Shown: positions 2,447 to 51,804 of the stretch, piece by piece
Numbering within the stretch: position 1 is the first letter of the stretch
Layout: each line of letters opens with the position of its first letter
Notes under the pieces: model-generated
What the model was told of the DNA's origin: nothing
The model's database searches: none
Seen by the model: the letters and a program-made list of their open reading frames with translations, nothing else
Virus record (IMG/VR): IMGVR_UViG_2703718819_000006
Source of the DNA: a virus
Lineage: Duplodnaviria > Heunggongvirae > Uroviricota > Caudoviricetes
Reading direction: 5' to 3' (one strand)
DNA length: 64,000 nt
Program-made: the position numbers and the translations under genes

Positions 2447-2827
2447 CTAATTGCCGGATAAAATGGGGTGAGGTGCTTGCCAGTAGGCTCCACCGTTCCA
2501 TGTGAATCCCATGCGAATAAGAGTGTTTATTGCGGCTTTGGTAGACTCAGATTCGACACTGGCTTTTCGAAACTCTTGAACCTCTTTCGCCAACTTGTAT
2601 GTAATTGTGCTGGGGACGATTGCAGCCCAGCCTTTCTCATGACTGTTAATGACCATCTGGATGTGACCATCCAGAATAGGTTGATTAGGCATGTTATTGA
2701 AAATGTCTGCCTGTTTTTGAATGTGAAGAAAAAGCCTTGCCAGCTCCATTTGCTCACTACGAGACAAGGGATTATCAAGAGGGCTTTTTGCAAAAGCGGC
2801 TATACGCTGTGCGTCAATGCCAAACAT
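2447..2827 (-). CDS. hypothetical protein
   Basis: ORF track; ATGA overlap with upstream gene. Confidence 0.5.
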   Translation of the reverse strand: MFGIDAQRIAAFAKSPLDNPLSRSEQMELARLFLHIQKQADIFNNMPNQPILDGHIQMVINSHEKGWAAIVPSTITYKLAKEVQEFRKASVESESTKAAINTLIRMGFTWNGGAYWQAPHPILSGN

Positions 2828-3531
2828 CAGCGCACCTCACCATCTTTATGGCTGGAGCTAACTTCCGCCATTAAATGTCTGACGTAATCGACAAGAGAGC
2901 CACCTGGTGGAATCTGGCATTCCTCAACTAACTGGAAGTAGATATCCGCTGCATTACGTGTATTGCTACCCGCACATATTCTTTCTTCCCGAAGTGCATG
3001 AAGCTCGTTGATCAAACGGTCACACTCTCCGTTACGCTGATCCACAACGGCCTCAAGCTCTGCGACGCGTTCACCTGGCGTCTTACCTTCTTTGCGTTGG
3101 ATGGTAACGACGAAATCGCCAATTGCAGGGGCGTTGTAATCCAGCTCAAGGTAGTTTTTGGCACCGCTGCGGACGAACTCACCCGCGAACATGGTGGCGA
3201 ACATCGCAGAGGCCACTTCGCCGTTGAAAAGTGACTCCAGATCTAACGGAGTCCCGGCATCAAGAGCCTCTTTTGCTGTATCCATTGCATCCATGAACCG
3301 ATCAAACTCATTGGCGCGCTTTTCCAGGTTTTTCCATTGCTCGCTCCAACGTTTGGCAACGAAGTCTATGAATGTTTTCGCGGATTCATCAAAATTCCCC
3401 TCAAACTTAACGATGCCTTTATCAATAATGATCTGGCCTACCGCATCCTCTGCATAACCTTTCAATGTAAACTTGAAAGGAAAATCAGAATGGCCTGTGA
3501 CGTTAAAATGCTCTAACTGGAGGTTGTTCAT
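2827..3531 (-). CDS. hypothetical protein
   Basis: ORF track; start carries the conserved AAAGGAAAAACACATG leader. Confidence 0.55.
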   Translation of the reverse strand: MNNLQLEHFNVTGHSDFPFKFTLKGYAEDAVGQIIIDKGIVKFEGNFDESAKTFIDFVAKRWSEQWKNLEKRANEFDRFMDAMDTAKEALDAGTPLDLESLFNGEVASAMFATMFAGEFVRSGAKNYLELDYNAPAIGDFVVTIQRKEGKTPGERVAELEAVVDQRNGECDRLINELHALREERICAGSNTRNAADIYFQLVEECQIPPGGSLVDYVRHLMAEVSSSHKDGEVR

Positions 3532-8559: not shown

Positions 8560-9153
8560 TTACTGCTTGTTGTAAACAAAACCAATATCTTTCTTGTGAG
8601 GCATATCTGCTGCGGAAAAAGCTGCGATCTTCGCGAGTCGATCACATATTTCATTTTCACGATGCCCGGCGTGACCTTTAACCCACTTCCAGCGAACATT
8701 ATGTCGACTTGCAGCCTCATCCAGACGCTTCCACAGATCAACATTCTTTACCGGTTTTTTGTCAGAAGTCACCCATCCATTGCGTTTCCACCATTTCATC
8801 CACTGTGTCATGCCGTTTTTCAGATACTGGCTATCAGAGTGCAAAATAACGTTGCATGGATATTTCAAACGCTCCAGCCCGATAAGTGCCCCCATCATCT
8901 CCATGCGGTTATTGGTGGTGCTATGAAAACCATCTGAGAACTCGCGTTCCTCACCACGATACTGGAGAACGATACCGTAACCGCCCGGGCCACCCGGATT
9001 TTTAAGGCAAGAGCCATCACTAAAGATTTTCACGGTTTTAAGCTGGGGATTGAACTCTACGACAGGCGTTGTGGGATTGGTGCGGGGGGAATTTTTGTTT
9101 TTGGCTTTTTTGCGAGTTTTTGCTTGCGATCGAGCTGGTGTCTTCGTCGTCAT
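8560..9153 (-). CDS. rnhA: ribonuclease HI
   Basis: Strong similarity to RNase HI (FSDGSC..GGYG, TNNRME, KGHAGHxENExCDxLA); start moved to ATG with AGGAG RBS. Confidence 0.85.
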
Positions 9154-9735
9154 ATAAACTCCTGAATCAAGCGCCGCGCCGATTTTTCCTCGCGCGTGCG
9201 CACACGCGTGCGTGTTAATAATTATTAAAATAAACAAATTACTTCCCAGAACAGGTTTTTATAAACCTGAACTGAACGAACGAAGTGAGTGAAGTTCACC
9301 TCGAACGAAGTGAGAGGTTGTCTTTTCAGGTAATACTCTCCCAGGGAGGTGAGTATAAAAATCTCTCACCAACCTGGTCGTTTCATAACCTGAAAAGTTA
9401 TGGTCTAAGTCTACTGCCAGCTTAGACTTGGGAAGTTATGGATGACAGCACCCCAGAACCGAGATCTTCCCACACTTTATGAAGGGGAGTACTGGATTCA
9501 ACCTCTCGAAACACCCCAGACTCGACAATCATAAAGTGACCCTTGTCTCCGCTCACTTTGGTTCCCCCTTCCCCGACACCTAAACGGCACCAGTTCTACG
9601 CTGGTAGTGAGCTTTTTTAAACCTGACGCCAGTGACGCTTACCCCCACCCATCAGGTCGAGTCTCCAGTCTACGACTGGAAACTATCAGATCTTAGCACT
9701 TACAATTCACTTTATGAATAGTTTGTACTTATCTA

Positions 9736-43237: not shown

Positions 43238-45346
43238 TCACTTCAAAATGATACGAGATAGTTCAGTAACTACAGATGAACCAAGACTATCAACGCTCGT
43301 TACCAGGGCATGATTTGAGTAAAATCTCTCCGGTGCGTCAGTCATGATGCCAATTGCCATCAAATCAATGTCAGTCTGCGTTTCAATTTGCTTCGCAACC
43401 GAACGCAAATGAGCGTCAAAACCTCTCCCAACAGCCAACGGCGCGCCATCACTCAGAACAAGCATGATCTTCCTGTCCTCCATGCGACCGGAAAATAACG
43501 ATGCAAGGCTGGCTATGCTTTCACCATCCACGTTATTAAGAAGTGGGAATGTGTAGCCTACGCACCCCATACGTGAGCGAACTTCGCGAGAATTTACCTT
43601 TTCATTCCAATTTTTGATGATAGGTAGCATTAAAGATTCAAAGCGAGAGAACTCATACTTGACAGCCTTAAGTTCTCCTGCCGCCATATGACTACCAAAT
43701 GTAGTGAAGCCGGTGATAATGTTGGGAACATTTATTCGATCAAGGGCATCGGCGATGGTATATGCACTTGCAAGAGCCAATTGTATCGTTATACCACTCA
43801 TTGAACCTGATAAATCAATCACTTGTTGAACACAGGCGTTAACGGCTTTAGATTCTTCTTTTTTACGAAACACGCGATCATCATTCATTGCTAATCTGTA
43901 GATACTAGAACCATGAATGCGCCCCCGACGCTGGCCCGGTATAAACTGAACTCTGTTTCTGCTTGCTATTGCTCGCTCCAGATCTTTTGCCAGCGTCGAC
44001 GAAACACCTGACGAAAGATGCTTTTCAATATATTTGTCGAAGAGCTGGTTGCCTTCAGGAACGATGCGATAGCGGCTGATTGGATATCCTCCTAAATCAA
44101 TATCGGAGAATGTTTTAATAAGCCGTTTGATATGGGCTTCTGCCTGATCAATCGAGCCGATGAAGTCGTATGAGCGATTGTATGGTCTGTATTCGCTTTT
44201 CGAGCTTTCTGTTAACTCGCTTTTAATCGTTTCGGATAGCGCATCTTCTGTCATGCCTCCGACTTCATCTTCCATGCTATCCAACTCCTCTAAAGCCTCT
44301 TCCAGACTCATTTTTGACGGAGTTGGAATGTCTGAAGAGCCGTCTTCTGTCGATTTTCTTTTTTCGTGGTCAGTGGTAAATGATTCTGACGCCGCGTTAT
44401 CAGAAGCACCAGAATCTGATACCTCTTTATCATTTTCTGTATCATCGAATATTGTTTCTGATGATTCAGAATTATCTGAATCATCACTGTCGTTATTATC
44501 ATGTTTGTGCTTACTGTGTGATTCTGATTTGATAGATTTGTGATTATCTACCGCTGAGGGTGTCTCATGATCTTCGTTGTCTTCATTGTTTTCTCCAGAG
44601 GCATCCGTCTGGTCAGCGTCTGAAGGATCGGAAGTTTTTCCCGGAGCTGACTCCTTACCTTTGCTTTCACTTTCAGTGTCTTTGAGGATCTTAGCTATGG
44701 TCGCAGCCACCTTTACACAATCCTCGGTGCAAGACATGTTACGCACGGCCACATCGATACCATGTTCTTTTAATAATGAAATTGGTTTCTCAATGACAGG
44801 CCAATATTCATCCATGAAATCTACGAACGGTGCTTGGCCATCCCAGGCTCTTACAACCGGACAGAGAAAGAAGTTTAGAAAAAGCGCGCGCTGATCTTTG
44901 CCACAATAAGCAATAGCCTCTGAAGCCTTTGGTTTAAAGACTTTTTCGATTATAAGGCGCTGAGTTGCCATCAGATTACGTCTTGTTCCGTTAAAGACCT
45001 GACCCATTTTTCGCTCGATGAACACGTCTTCTAAGGCATTCCATAGCGACCAGGAAGGAACGCGTCCCTTTTCTCTCATTTTGTTGGACACACGAATATC
45101 GGTAAACAAAATGTGAGCAACCTCATGATCGAGAAATCCGCGCACAGCATTCATCAATGCCGGTGTTGCGTTATCCGGGATTGATGGGATGTTTACGAGA
45201 ATTGGCTCTCCATCATCGTTATAGCGTACATAAGCGTCGTCCCCTCGTTCTGCAACAGGGATGTTTTTACCTGAAAGGAGAGCGACTACTCGTTTTACAC
45301 TGTCACGGAAGTCCTGAACCTCTTTGATGGAACGTTTTTTAGACAT
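43238..45346 (-). CDS. CobT-like protein with acidic linker and C-terminal von Willebrand A domain
   Basis: Long D/E/S-rich segment; MIDAS motif DLSGSMSG. Confidence 0.65.
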   Translation of the reverse strand: MSKKRSIKEVQDFRDSVKRVVALLSGKNIPVAERGDDAYVRYNDDGEPILVNIPSIPDNATPALMNAVRGFLDHEVAHILFTDIRVSNKMREKGRVPSWSLWNALEDVFIERKMGQVFNGTRRNLMATQRLIIEKVFKPKASEAIAYCGKDQRALFLNFFLCPVVRAWDGQAPFVDFMDEYWPVIEKPISLLKEHGIDVAVRNMSCTEDCVKVAATIAKILKDTESESKGKESAPGKTSDPSDADQTDASGENNEDNEDHETPSAVDNHKSIKSESHSKHKHDNNDSDDSDNSESSETIFDDTENDKEVSDSGASDNAASESFTTDHEKRKSTEDGSSDIPTPSKMSLEEALEELDSMEDEVGGMTEDALSETIKSELTESSKSEYRPYNRSYDFIGSIDQAEAHIKRLIKTFSDIDLGGYPISRYRIVPEGNQLFDKYIEKHLSSGVSSTLAKDLERAIASRNRVQFIPGQRRGRIHGSSIYRLAMNDDRVFRKKEESKAVNACVQQVIDLSGSMSGITIQLALASAYTIADALDRINVPNIITGFTTFGSHMAAGELKAVKYEFSRFESLMLPIIKNWNEKVNSREVRSRMGCVGYTFPLLNNVDGESIASLASLFSGRMEDRKIMLVLSDGAPLAVGRGFDAHLRSVAKQIETQTDIDLMAIGIMTDAPERFYSNHALVTSVDSLGSSVVTELSRIILK

Positions 45347-49041: not shown

Positions 49042-49388
49042 TGCTTTGCCTCATGCCACTTTTGCTTCAGGAGATAGCCTTCCAGGGGCCAGATTTGATC
49101 GATAGCATCTTTTCGAGCGTACTCGCGACCAACATCAAAGTTGAAGATTTCTGGTCTTACGCACGCAGATTTTCCCGTTACGGTATATCCATTTTTGAGA
49201 ACCATAACGCAGAACGTTAAGAGTTTTAACGACTCATGACCTTTGTCGATATCTGTTTTTGAATTGTAAACAGAGATGAAGTTATCCCCGTGGCTGGCAT
49301 CATATGCAGTGAAATAATGTTCACTTTGAATGAGTTGTTCAATGTGTTCAGGGGTGACTTTTAGTGGTGTGTTCTCTTTGCTGGTCAT
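49038..49388 (-). CDS. hypothetical protein
   Basis: ORF track; ATGA overlap with glutaredoxin gene. Confidence 0.5.
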   Translation of the reverse strand: MTSKENTPLKVTPEHIEQLIQSEHYFTAYDASHGDNFISVYNSKTDIDKGHESLKLLTFCVMVLKNGYTVTGKSACVRPEIFNFDVGREYARKDAIDQIWPLEGYLLKQKWHEAKQ

Positions 49389-49434
49389 TATTTCTTCCTA
49401 CAAAGTTCGTAGACTTGACTCTTTCAGTTGCAAA

Positions 49435-49454
49435 AAAGGGGCCGAAGCCCCTTT
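49435..49454. terminator. rho-independent terminator (bidirectional-looking), closes the tRNA transcription unit
   Basis: aaaggggc cgaa gcccctttt with U-run on minus strand. Confidence 0.65.
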
Positions 49455-49608
49455 GAATTTTGCGCTGAAAAAAGTGTTGCTAGGATGTTAGCAAGCTATG
49501 GTTAAGAACGTCTGCCGTAATTGTCTATCACAGCGTTGAGCGGTCTGGTTTATGTTAGCGGAGTCTTAATCTGGGTGATTAAAAGGCCAAACCGCTCAAC
49601 GCTGTGTC

Positions 49609-49695
49609 TGGCGGAGAGTAATGGAATCGAACCATCATCGCTTGCGCAATGGGACGGTTTTCAAGACCGCTTGAGCACCATGCTCCCTACTCTCC
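49609..49695 (-). tRNA. tRNA-Ser (anticodon TGA), type II with long variable arm
   Basis: Hand-folded: acceptor GGAGAGT/ACTCTCC, anticodon loop CTTGAAA, T-loop GGTTCGATTCC, encoded GCCA 3' end. Confidence 0.7.
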
Positions 49696-50341
49696 AATTG
49701 TTGTGGTGCCGGGTGCCTCCCGGTGTCCTTTGGCTGGTTATCCACCGTGAACGGGGCCACAGATGTCATAAGATGAGCAATATAACCATTTCCCCGCGTG
49801 CGCTTAGCCGCATTCACCACAACGGAAAGAGCATTCACATCTCGCGTGCCGCCACGAATAGCAACTCAGAGAGTCGAACTCTGAAAATGCTCTTACCTGT
49901 TGTGTGCTGTGTCACTCCCTCCGCTATTACCTGGCTTTGCCTCGACCTTTTAGGTTGCGTCCGATGATAAACAGGGCTGTCGGAAATTTGTCTGTGGCAC
50001 AGCGATAAGAGAACTCGATGCATTTAAGCCAAGCCCCATATGGGAAGTTCTCTTATCTGTTGTGCGCTCCGTTTCGTGGAGCTAACGGCGGGTGAACAGG
50101 CCGCACCAGGTTGGACATATTTCAGCGTTATGCTGTTGCAAGAGAGCCAAATTGTGATGGTCGGTGCTGAACTCCGACACAGGGTTGTAGCAAGCCCCGC
50201 AAAGCGCGCACTACTGTAGTTACGGCACATCAGCCTGTGCATTCATCACAATGTTGAGAACACTGGTTGTCACGCGGCAACGCAACATTTATTCATAAAT
50301 TGGGATATGAACCCGTTACGCCAATGTTCTCAATATTATGT

Positions 50342-50417
50342 TGGTGCCGGTTAACGGACTTGAACCGCTGGCCATTCGCTTACAAAGCGACTGCTCTACC
50401 AACTGAGCTAAACCGGC
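50342..50417 (-). tRNA. tRNA-Thr (anticodon TGT)
   Basis: Hand-folded: acceptor GCCGGTT/AACCGGC, D-arm GCTCAGTTGGTAGAGC, anticodon loop TTTGTAA, encoded CCA. Confidence 0.7.
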
Positions 50418-50421
50418 AATT

Positions 50422-50508
50422 TGGTGGGGAGTGATGGAGTCGAACCACCCGAGTCGCAATGACGGTAGATTTACAGTCTACACCGCTACCTCTACGGACT
50501 AACTCCCC
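50422..50508 (-). tRNA. tRNA-Tyr (anticodon GTA), type II
   Basis: Anticodon arm GTAGA-CTGTAAA-TCTAC, T-loop GGTTCGACTCC, acceptor GGGGAGT/ACTCCCC, encoded CCA. Confidence 0.75.
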
Positions 50509-50513
50509 TAAAT

Positions 50514-50588
50514 TGGCGATGGTGGGTGGATTCGAACCACCGACCAGTTGGTTAACAGCCAACTGCTCTACCGCTGAGCTACACCATC
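50514..50588 (-). tRNA. tRNA-Asn (anticodon GTT)
   Basis: Anticodon arm GTTGG-CTGTTAA-CCAAC, T-loop GGTTCGAATCC, acceptor GATGGTG/CACCATC. Confidence 0.75.
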
Positions 50589-51364
50589 AATTCAGCACTG
50601 CCAGTATTTATTACTCAACAGTGCCAATCGCGGCGGTGTTAGTTTCTGCCAGGAAACGCACCGCTACTTGCACTTTCCGTTAGTGCCAGACGTTTTCGAC
50701 TTCGCTCAATAGAAGGCAAAATCTTTAAGTAGATGATGTTTCTGAGGACAGCACCTACTTTGTAATTCATACAATGTGATGTATGGAATCATTTGTTGTG
50801 AAAACAGGCACCAATGGCAACAGTGGTTAAACCTACACAACAATCCTGTCTTCACAACGTTGAGGCCACTACTCCGATTGAATGTTTGCCCAACATGTTA
50901 CATATCAACGCTCGCCGGTATCTCTGTGAATAGAACCTTAGAATTGATAAAAATGTAATGGCCTCAACGTTGTGTGCTGGCTAACCATACCAGCCGGGCT
51001 ACGTCGCCGCTTTTTAACCCAGTATAAACGACATAATTAAACAAAATGACGTAACAGGATGGGCGGTCAGTGGCTAAGAATCCGGGAGTCATATGGAGTT
51101 GAAAATATACCAACCGCCCATTCTGTTACTTCATCGGAGGGAACATGAATGTTCCCTCCTGCGTTCTGCAATCACACTCGCTCAGTGTGTCCCATTTCGG
51201 TAACGAGGCTGGAAACTGACCTCGCTGGTGTTTGGCTTATTAGGCTACTGCCAGATAGACTTCTTCGTTTGCACTTGTATTTAAGTTCAAACAGTCGCGT
51301 CTCAACGAAAACAAAGTCATCTTATACACAAAAGATAAGTAAGTAAATACTTATCAATATGTTT

Positions 51365-51655
51365 TTATTCGGTTGTGACTTTTTTGATCAAGGCCACTCT
51401 ACGACTAGGTGTTCTTGTAATGGTGGCAGTGAATCGTTTCGCTTGGATAGTAATGGTTTCGTTCTCCTTAAGTTGCCCGTAGCGAGTTTCCACCAGGGTG
51501 CCAAGACGCCACAGACCATCATCGATACGTTTATGACTAGCAAATTTAATCAGCAACAGTTTTACGACTAACTGACCTACGTAAAAGGCGAATGCGACTC
51601 CGGCCGCTAAGAAATAGGTGGCCAACCACCATTCCCAAGAAGTTAAATTGCTCAT
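51365..51655 (-). CDS. membrane protein, hypothetical
   Basis: ORF track; N-terminal TM helix. Confidence 0.45.
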   Translation of the reverse strand: MSNLTSWEWWLATYFLAAGVAFAFYVGQLVVKLLLIKFASHKRIDDGLWRLGTLVETRYGQLKENETITIQAKRFTATITRTPSRRVALIKKVTTE

Positions 51656-51804
51656 TTTTTCACCTTTGTTTCATGAACTACCCGATACACACGCTTTCCA
51701 ATGCACAGTGTTTTGGTTTTAAGTTCCTGCTTAATTAAATCACGACAGATGCCGAAGCCGATAAGGAAGCCACCCATAAAAGCTAATGAGATGTATGGAA
51801 TCAT
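51652..51804 (-). CDS. small hydrophobic protein (50 aa); its start codon lies in the repeated ATGATTCCATAC motif
   Basis: ATGA overlaps with both neighbours. Confidence 0.3.
   Translation of the reverse strand: MIPYISLAFMGGFLIGFGICRDLIKQELKTKTLCIGKRVYRVVHETKVKK

Follow-up and report, generated by a model that had tools for sequence, protein, structure and literature searches.

Within the 64,000-nt stretch analyzed here (the window; virus record IMGVR_UViG_2703718819_000006), which is a phage-plasmid, a cluster of four tRNA genes sits within an array of minus-strand, non-coding RNA units that spans about 1.5 kb (about 49430-50975) and most likely shares a transcript with the tRNAs. Two kinds of unit alternate along the array: long hairpins, in which a conserved frame encloses a free interior, and modules, most of which combine tRNA-like ends with a hypervariable middle. 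That the minus strand encodes structured non-coding RNA is, in our judgement, very likely. To the overall picture, in which co-transcribed hairpins and tRNA-like RNA cassettes would be excised by nucleases and act in trans, we assign a probability of roughly 0.6. As judged by sequence comparison, the array is a mobile block of cassettes, the units of which recur in the leader of the late operon in lambda and other lambdoid phages and in the upl/plp part of phage P1.

An original prediction on this DNA had taken the sequence between the tRNA genes not for spacer but for degenerate tRNAs or other small structured RNAs. The proposal is borne out by three kinds of search: (i) a covariance-model match to the small RNA STnc100 in Rfam, just under the gathering score; (ii) conservation of the hairpins and of most modules, with compensatory changes, in relatives and in distant lambdoid phages; and (iii) a tRNA call for one module at a relaxed ARAGORN threshold and for equivalent modules elsewhere at the default threshold.

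Units of the array

The 646-bp spacer between tRNA-Thr and tRNA-Ser (49696-50341), read on the tRNA strand, consists of long hairpins alternating with modules in the order H1-A-D-H2-C-H3-B. The window totals are five long hairpins, five modules and four tRNAs, with two of the units, H0 and U1, lying upstream of tRNA-Asn and beyond the interval considered by the original prediction. In minus-strand order, the features and the basis of each are:

50853-50974, minus strand: H0, long hairpin with 20-bp arms CACAACGTTGAGGCC...GGCCTCAACGTTGTG (inverted repeat)
50795-50858, minus strand: U1, 64-nt module closed by GTTGTGAAGACAGG / CCTGTTTTCACAAC (inverted repeat; closed-module scan)
50589-50794, minus strand: leader between U1 and tRNA-Asn (several local hairpins by minimum-free-energy fold)
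50514-50588, minus strand: tRNA-Asn (gtt) (ARAGORN; Rfam tRNA, 75.5 bits)
50422-50508, minus strand: tRNA-Tyr (gta) (ARAGORN; Rfam tRNA, 40.5 bits)
50342-50417, minus strand: tRNA-Thr (tgt), CCA encoded (ARAGORN; Rfam tRNA, 69 bits)
50253-50334, minus strand: H1, long hairpin ATTGAGAACAYTGG...CCAGTGTTCTCAAC, loop with GGGTTCATATCCC (inverted repeat)
50151-50252, minus strand: module A, tRNA-like scaffold (compensatory changes; relaxed ARAGORN call)
50065-50150, minus strand: module D, three conserved hairpins (eleven homologues)
49998-50064, minus strand: H2, long hairpin of the CAACAGRTAAG...CTTNYCGYTGTG family (inverted repeat; member of the 82-hairpin family)
49906-50003, minus strand: module C, 98 nt, closed by GCTGTGCCAC / GTGACACAGC (closed-module scan)
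49818-49904, minus strand: H3, long hairpin CACAACAGGTAAGAGCATT...AATGCTCTTTCCGTTGTG (inverted repeat; family covariation)
49700-49823, minus strand: module B, STnc100-type, closed by GTTGTGGTG / CACCACAAC (Rfam RF02076 and homologues)
49609-49695, minus strand: tRNA-Ser (tga), type II, short D loop (ARAGORN; tRNA-Ser annotation in phage Cyrano and RefSeq plasmids)
49529-49606, minus strand: H4, 20-bp hairpin CACAGCGTTGAGCGG...CCGCTCAACGCTGTG (inverted repeat; fold z = -11.1)
49432-49451, minus strand: intrinsic-terminator-like GGGGCTTCGGCCCC followed by TTTTTT, end of the array (direct sequence reading)

All units but module C recur in other phages, most of them with compensatory changes, and the closed modules U1, A, C and B share GYTGTG.../...CACARC closing stems. 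In seven of nine units the minus strand gives the more stable fold. For the five long hairpins the minus-strand fold z ranges from -3.4 to -11: H0 gives -6.8 (-4.8 on the plus strand), H1 -4.3, and H2 and H3 -3.4 each. H0 is seen in close relatives only and U1 is kept in Cyrano and related contigs. The leader that follows U1 carries a GGCACTG...CAGTGCT hairpin immediately 5' of tRNA-Asn, and its 90-97% identity in five relatives leaves no covariation to draw on. H1 begins 7 nt past tRNA-Thr and has eleven distinct homologues in P1-like elements; H2-type hairpins are also found downstream of tR' in Escherichia coli prophages, and the type of cargo carried by H3 is found in prophages with C-G to U-A changes in its small stem. 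H4 begins 2 nt past tRNA-Ser, and a related hairpin (locus L083) has the compensating arms GCTGAACGG/CCGTTCAAC. The terminator-like hairpin at the end of the array was not listed by a consensus terminator scan, perhaps because flanking A and T bases can lengthen its stem and shorten its T tail.

The inverted repeats and the repeated motif that had first drawn attention to the region could all be located. The perfect 12-bp inverted repeat GATAAGAGAACT/AGTTCTCTTATC (50004-50015 / 50046-50057) belongs to H2; the motif CTCTTAYCTGTTGTGYGCT (49885-49908 / 50045-50068) occurs twice because the hairpin frame is present twice, in H2 and H3; and other long inverted repeats span 49529-49606, 49824-49897, 50244-50343 and 50853-50974. 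The same prediction had combined a T-arm-like sequence, CAGAGTTCGACTCTCTG, with a 5-bp acceptor-like pairing. Both exist, the T-arm-like sequence at 49867-49883; however, it lies in the loop of long hairpin H3 and not in a cloverleaf, the tRNA-like units being elsewhere, and the pairing spans two units, module C and H3, where it competes with the covarying H3 stem. As the pairing partner is moreover not conserved in relatives with the same hairpin, this candidate tRNA was rejected.

Covariation of hairpins and modules

We assembled the long-hairpin family by a pattern scan of viral contigs. The scan yielded 120 loci and 137 instances, of which 82 hairpins are distinct. The frame CACAACAGRTAAG...CTTNYCGYTGTG is common to H2 and H3, which have stems of about 19 bp and fit the frame of lambdoid late leaders, CACAACAGGTAAG...CTTNCCGTTGTG (also CACAACAGGTAAG...CTTTCCGTTGTG), which has a stem of the same length; H0, H1 and H4 are built to the same design on a second frame (CACARCGTTGAG...). 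Beyond the bases fixed by the pattern, seven stem pairs are kept in 76-82 of the 82 hairpins, and the arms fall into compensating classes: GAGCATTG/CAGTGCTC, GCTGCTTG/CAGGCAGC, GTTATTTCAC/GTGAAATGAC, GCCAAATCG/CGATTTGGC and GGGTA/TACCC. One stem position is U·G in 62 of the 82 and would be C·A on the other strand, which places the constraint on RNA read from the tRNA strand. The interiors (38-60 nt) are unrelated to each other, 75 of them forming 25 groups that share no 8-mer, and some contain T-loop-like hairpins. The long hairpins abut tRNAs or tRNA-like modules within 2-7 nt. Querying genome contigs with a 15-mer gave nearly all chance matches, with a real hairpin in three loci, one of them in Serratia.

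We also compared hairpin interiors with the interiors of the modules that follow them. The longest complementary run averaged 5.51 nt for true neighbors and 5.50 nt for shuffled partners, so the interiors of a hairpin and of the next module are not complementary. At the junctions, the GYTGTG at the 3' end of a hairpin has two possible partners, the CACAAC at the base of that hairpin and the CACARC in the closing stem of the module downstream. At the H2/C junction of the window (49998-50003 with 49906-49915) a U-to-C change is compensated in the downstream partner only; in P1 module B, both partners compensate. Alternative or sequential folds at these junctions seem possible.

The unit that follows a hairpin nearly always begins GTTGTGGTG and ends CACCACAAC. 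In the commonest type, a D-arm-like hairpin, GCGC AGGCUGAU GCGC, lies on the 5' side, and a T-arm-like hairpin, GCCGG AGAUCAGCA CCGGC, lies on the 3' side and directly abuts the closing stem. The middles (30-180 nt) are hypervariable, with 90 interiors falling into 55 groups. Alignment of the ends of 31 modules gave 97.6% paired cells, with 12 of 24 pairs changed on both sides compared with 3.2 in shuffles (none of 500 shuffles reached the observed value), and sliding the register of the alignment abolished the signal. In the same alignment three of the five pairs of a helix between the two loops are changed on both sides. Complementarity between the D-like and the T-like loop is maintained by covariation (GCUGAU/AUCAGC, ACUGAU/AUCAGU, GUCGA/UCGAC, and UUGCUA/UAGCAA in locus L058), which suggests, with moderate confidence, that they form a kissing helix at the place where a tRNA has its elbow.

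Module A illustrates this architecture in the window: its closing stem is GTGATG/CATCAC, its D-arm-like hairpin GCACA GGCTGA TGTGC and its T-arm-like hairpin GTCGG AGTTCAGCA CCGAC, and its loops are complementary (GCUGA/UCAGC). Both the D-like and the T-like stem show compensatory changes relative to loci L077 and L287. ARAGORN run with -ps80 -i reports the module (50153-50249) as a tRNA with a 10-nt insert, and its fold z is -2.2. In module D no closing stem was found; its last hairpin is T-arm-like (GCTCC ACGAAAC GGAGC, 50066-50082), its eleven homologues are 76-87% identical, with six of 16 predicted pairs compensated, and it matches phages of Klebsiella and Cronobacter.

At default settings, ARAGORN calls the modules of three loci (L127, L101 and L081) as insert-bearing tRNAs; in these the GTTGTGGTG...CACCACAAC frame encloses D and T arms of canonical form. 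Those of L061, L095 and L256, like module A, are called at the relaxed threshold only. The spacer of the window (49696-50341) contains no tRNA by ARAGORN default and no Rfam tRNA match at E up to 10. Modules A and B depart from canonical tRNA geometry: their T-like loops have 9 and 5 nt, respectively, and their closing stems have 9 bp and trail AAUU or AAC, not CCA. True tRNAs can occupy the slot of a module, since at four loci a tRNA-Arg or tRNA-Gly starts 2-3 nt inside the 3' end of a hairpin. A hairpin starts 4 nt past tRNA-Thr in 25 cases and 5 nt past it in one more, and tRNA and hairpin are on the same strand in every measured case. Judged by sequence and predicted fold, the modules form a graded series from tRNA to STnc100-type RNA. 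They probably descend from tRNA genes, the alternative being convergence on tRNA-like ends, since the same enzymes would process them. In two viral contigs, L081 (3848-3912) and L031 (264-330), a hairpin with its tRNA-like module is preceded, at a distance of about 140-300 nt, by an int-alpA RNA motif (RF02996).

Module B brings a known small RNA into the array. The region 49673-49845 on the minus strand matches the full length of the Rfam model STnc100 (RF02076) with 42.5 bits and E 2.1e-7, under the gathering score of 47 bits, and homologues of module B in P1 score 33-42 bits. From these scores module B appears to belong to, or sit next to, the STnc100/PasD family, as a significant relative and not as a curated member, and module A appears as its more tRNA-like relative. 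The 3' end of module B lies 5 nt before tRNA-Ser, and its fold z is -2.2; its sixteen homologues include a P1 group in which the closing stem changes from U-A to C-G, and no loop-loop complement was seen in it. In the alignment, the STnc100 model starts within the 3' half of H3, where it should start if the 5' end of the small RNA (sRNA) arises by cleavage of the hairpin. The apical segment is wholly different between homologues: in P1 (locus L001) it is pyrimidine-rich, UUAUUUCUCCUUGUUUCC, like an anti-Shine-Dalgarno seed, and in the window (49740-49790) it is an unrelated UUGCUCAUCUUAUGACAUCUG.

The alignment of module B to STnc100 covers the whole model, from its GGUGAAU... start to its CACCGGGAGGCACCCGGCACCA end. 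STnc100 and PasD, which are sRNAs encoded by prophages of Salmonella and pathogenic E. coli, adjoin the antiterminator gene Q and the holin gene, PasD is a reported structural relative of STnc100 with targets identified by RIL-seq, and the same preprint assigns nearby tRNA-like sequences to integration sites (bioRxiv 10.64898/2026.05.13.724894). STnc100 RNA has been detected by reverse transcription PCR, its function being unproven (PMC12370729). Homologues of units of the window are found in the same place. Module B differs from the family in its location, in the tRNA operon of a phage-plasmid and not in a lambdoid late region near Q and holin, and in two features absent from the published description, the tRNA-like architecture and the preceding hairpin.

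Relatives in P1, lambda and other phages

The 646-bp spacer is 99.5% identical over its full length to a plasmid of Escherichia marmotae CNCTC 8131 (NZ_CP146383). With the upl/plp part of the P1 ban operon it shares separate blocks of about 90% identity. Matches to individual units are found in many temperate phages, among them phages of Klebsiella, Salmonella, Cronobacter and Enterobacter. Matches in E. coli chromosomes fall in the gap of about 1.1 kb between Q and holin of lambdoid prophages, in the direction of late transcription. In lambda itself, a hairpin and a closed module lie directly after tR' (L007 988-1135, equal to lambda 44787-44934; the hairpin copy at L007 988-1063). No gene is annotated in this stretch, between orf-64 and S. 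On sequence grounds the homology of the array units to lambdoid late leaders is near certain: lambda has a hairpin in this frame, GCACAACAGGTAAGAGCATTG...CAGTGCTCTTTCCGTTGTGC, and after it a module of 85 nt with the closing stem GTTGTGCTG/CAGCACAAC. Lambda differs in having one hairpin, one module and no tRNA, and the array of the window lies in a different operon. RNase III processing sites are reported for the late transcript of lambda (Daniels et al., Virology 1988; reference 49 of PMC7547250). In another locus, L078, a hairpin at 117-190 is immediately preceded by a match to the Rfam family isrJ (28-104, 60 bits), a layout that would fit IsrJ as a short, terminated transcript of a prophage late leader, by analogy with lambda 6S RNA or StxS.

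The P1 ban operon has the order tRNA-Asn, tRNA-Thr, plp, upl, tciABC, tRNA-Ile, ban. It shares the order and strand of the tRNAs and about 90% identity over H1, A, D and B with the window; it differs by an extra hairpin and module after tRNA-Thr, by lacking H2, C and H3, and in that its records show two protein genes there, both on the opposite strand. The GenBank and RefSeq records of P1 give these genes, Upl (63 aa) and Plp (a putative lipoprotein of 125 aa), with predicted promoters, and the window could by the same reading encode small proteins on its plus strand. An ORF of 59 aa with an ATG start (50040-50219, plus strand), homologous to upl, is indeed open. The original prediction had seen only implausible ORFs in 49696-50341; this one looks plausible but fails the coding test. 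Between the window and P1, the upl frame has 15 differences, distributed 1/8/6 by codon position, with 10 nonsynonymous and 2 synonymous codon changes, and its last 67 nt are invariant, third positions included. Distant homologues carry stops and frameshifting indels, and the homology breaks inside the ORF, at the D/A boundary. The start of Upl is shifted in the window, and plp, which overlaps tRNA-Thr in P1, is mostly missing. A Pfam search of the ORFs of the stretch gave no family match, and among the matches listed nearly all RefSeq and PLSDB rows have no feature annotated under the match, the PLSDB gene tables being incomplete. Based on the coding test, the broken homologues and the Pfam result, we rejected protein coding by Upl, Plp and minus-strand ORFs; plus-strand proteins as in P1 are highly improbable, and upl and plp are probably not genes but artefacts of annotation. 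In P1 (L001, NC_005856) the two occupy the strand opposite to conserved RNA modules in the ban operon (2661-3230, equal to 69472-70041 of the record).

Another known system is the tRNA cluster of T4, which co-encodes stable RNAs (species 1 and 2, rnaC/rnaD) and in the processing of which RNase III is involved. There, small stable RNAs of unknown function lie among phage tRNAs and are released by the tRNA-processing machinery, as is proposed for the array; modularity or hypervariability is not known for the T4 RNAs. GOLLD and ROOL, large ornate RNAs of phages and prophages, are likewise structured and non-coding and lie beside phage tRNA genes, the difference being that the array is a chain of small independent units (60-130 nt) and not one large fold; neither has an Rfam match at E up to 10 in 49300-51100. 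ARAGORN and Rfam find no tmRNA in the window, and with no Rfam GOLLD, ROOL, YrlA or tmRNA there, large phage RNAs and tmRNA were discarded as candidates; weak tmRNA or YrlA hits in relatives are echoes of T-arms or tRNAs. In general terms, the modules resemble tRNA-like scaffolds such as the tmRNA domain and engineered tRNA scaffolds: an acceptor-like stem is stacked on a T-arm-like hairpin, a D-like element touches the T-like loop, and foreign sequence takes the place of the anticodon arm. They differ in the lack of a consistent CCA end, in the 9-bp closing stem and in a loop-loop helix of 5-6 bp in place of the tRNA elbow.

ARAGORN at default settings finds exactly four tRNAs in the region, all on the minus strand, namely the pack of three and the separate tRNA-Ser that had been read from the sequence before. 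tRNA-Thr, tRNA-Tyr and tRNA-Asn pass the Rfam gathering score as canonical tRNAs. tRNA-Ser(tga) falls below the Rfam tRNA gathering score, its assignment coming only from ARAGORN and the annotation of other records; its best Rfam match is the tRNA-Sec model (44.6 bits, cut-off 47), and its D loop is unusually short. The neighboring genes, on the minus strand like the tRNAs, encode an integrase, GrxA, a Gp49-family protein, a DNA ligase and a DnaB-like helicase, the tyrosine integrase gene lying 2.2 kb from the array. The flanks of the spacer match phage Cyrano and CMS-2020a. In Cyrano, a close relative, tRNA-Ser, -Thr and -Asn are adjacent, which makes the 646 bp and tRNA-Tyr of the window additions. 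A sister element (L032, an IMG/VR contig of 108 kb; 8689-9512) keeps the Asn-Tyr-Thr...Ser layout with a spacer of 490 bp, as against 646 bp, and has a kissing-loop-type module in place of the STnc100-type module B in the slot preceding tRNA-Ser; compared by sequence, the two appear to differ by replacement of a cassette at a fixed position.

Processing, function and competing explanations

We propose that the array would be transcribed with the tRNAs from an upstream promoter. RNase P, in cutting the 5' ends of the tRNAs, would also set the 3' end of module B, 5 nt before tRNA-Ser, and RNase III would cut the long stems, which would part the units and give each module its 5' end. Once freed, the tRNA-shaped scaffolds would be stable small RNAs, and their variable segments would act by base pairing, as reported for PasD, or as decoys. 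Of these steps, we regard the processing of the hairpins by RNase III as evenly balanced between true and false, and trans-acting base pairing by the modules, which is argued from analogy, as tentative and somewhat less probable than that.

Several points weigh against this proposal. No sigma-70 consensus promoter was found in 49300-51700, so that transcription would have to start beyond that interval, upstream, or at a promoter that departs from the consensus. The folds of modules C and D are no more stable than those of shuffled sequences (z = 0.2 for module C), and module C, the weakest unit, is found here and in the E. marmotae plasmid only, so that there is no covariation to assess. The loop-loop covariation is based on about three independent sequence classes. 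Module B receives no tRNA call from ARAGORN, even relaxed, and scores below the Rfam gathering score. That the RNase III sites of lambda lie just past tR', in this same hairpin, is an assumption. Transcription of the array, the nucleases and the function in trans are all inferred from sequence. Finally, Cyrano keeps its tRNAs without the array, which makes the array dispensable for the element.

The units could instead be decayed tRNA genes and recombination scars without a function of their own, the hairpins serving at most as passive processing or insulation signals. T-arm-like fragments scattered in loops would fit decay, as would the mosaic presence and absence among close relatives, with Cyrano lacking the whole array, and the breaks in homology at the GTTGTG/CACAAC junctions, which mere recombination joints would also produce. 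However, compensatory stem change across unrelated interiors and phage groups points to selection on structure rather than drift; the frame is nearly invariant while the interiors differ completely; and members of the STnc100/PasD family are detected RNAs, PasD with RIL-seq partners. Decay is for these reasons an unlikely explanation. We regard as a little less likely again that the array is a cis-acting leader, without trans-acting sRNAs, which controls the stability, antitermination or translation of downstream genes (the Gp49-family and GrxA genes here, lysis genes in lambdoid phages). Cleavage of leaders by RNase III is a known means of setting mRNA stability, the lambdoid units are always placed between tR' and holin, within the 5' leader of late transcripts, and those of the window lie inside a run of minus-strand genes. 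Against a leader stand the terminator-like hairpin and T-run (49432-49451), which part the array from the next gene, and the hypervariable interiors, which are hard to account for; the units moreover move between differing operons (late leader, P1 ban operon, this phage-plasmid), which is easier to reconcile with RNA genes that are complete in themselves than with a leader adapted to a single downstream gene.

A role of the inverted repeats as DNA, as cruciform or single-strand hairpin sites at which recombination or integration shuffles the cassettes and for which the RNA is irrelevant, is improbable. In its favor, the two halves of the junction motif form a palindrome (CACAAC...GTTGTG), cassette content varies between near-identical backbones, and an integrase gene is close by. 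Yet the stems tolerate the U·G pair that would be C·A on the other strand, the folds of most units favor the minus strand, and all measured cases have one and the same orientation with respect to tRNAs and transcription.

STnc100 and PasD are already described, and the RNase III sites of lambda are reported. Neither in Rfam 15 nor in the searchable literature did we find (i) a description of these hairpins as one family, with stems that covary around unconstrained interiors, (ii) the tRNA-like scaffold with a loop-loop helix or (iii) hairpins and scaffolds alternating with tRNAs as movable cassettes; a search for literature on the conserved sequences, on the RNase III sites of the lambda late leader and on tRNA-like lambdoid sRNAs gave nothing beyond the Pas preprint.

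With these units defined, about 1.5 kb of seemingly "empty" DNA resolves into RNA units, and P1 upl and plp look like misread RNA genes. One architecture would link the STnc100/PasD sRNAs, the gap between tR' and S in lambda and the tRNA morons of late leaders, with cassettes that move between operons and phage types. If the modules derive from tRNAs, new regulatory RNAs would arise from tRNA genes while keeping the ends that processing enzymes recognize. More speculatively, and in our view improbable as a whole, the temperate phages of enterobacteria, lambda and P1 included, may carry a library of RNA cassettes shuffled by recombination on two fixed frames, an RNase III-type stalk hairpin and a tRNA-derived scaffold that a kissing helix of D loop and T loop would hold in an L-shape, each with a hypervariable payload. 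Enzymes with which the host processes its tRNAs would excise the cassettes, and the payloads would serve as programmable antisense guides or decoys in conflicts between phage and host or between phages. If true, such a library would be a natural "tRNA scaffold" expression system.

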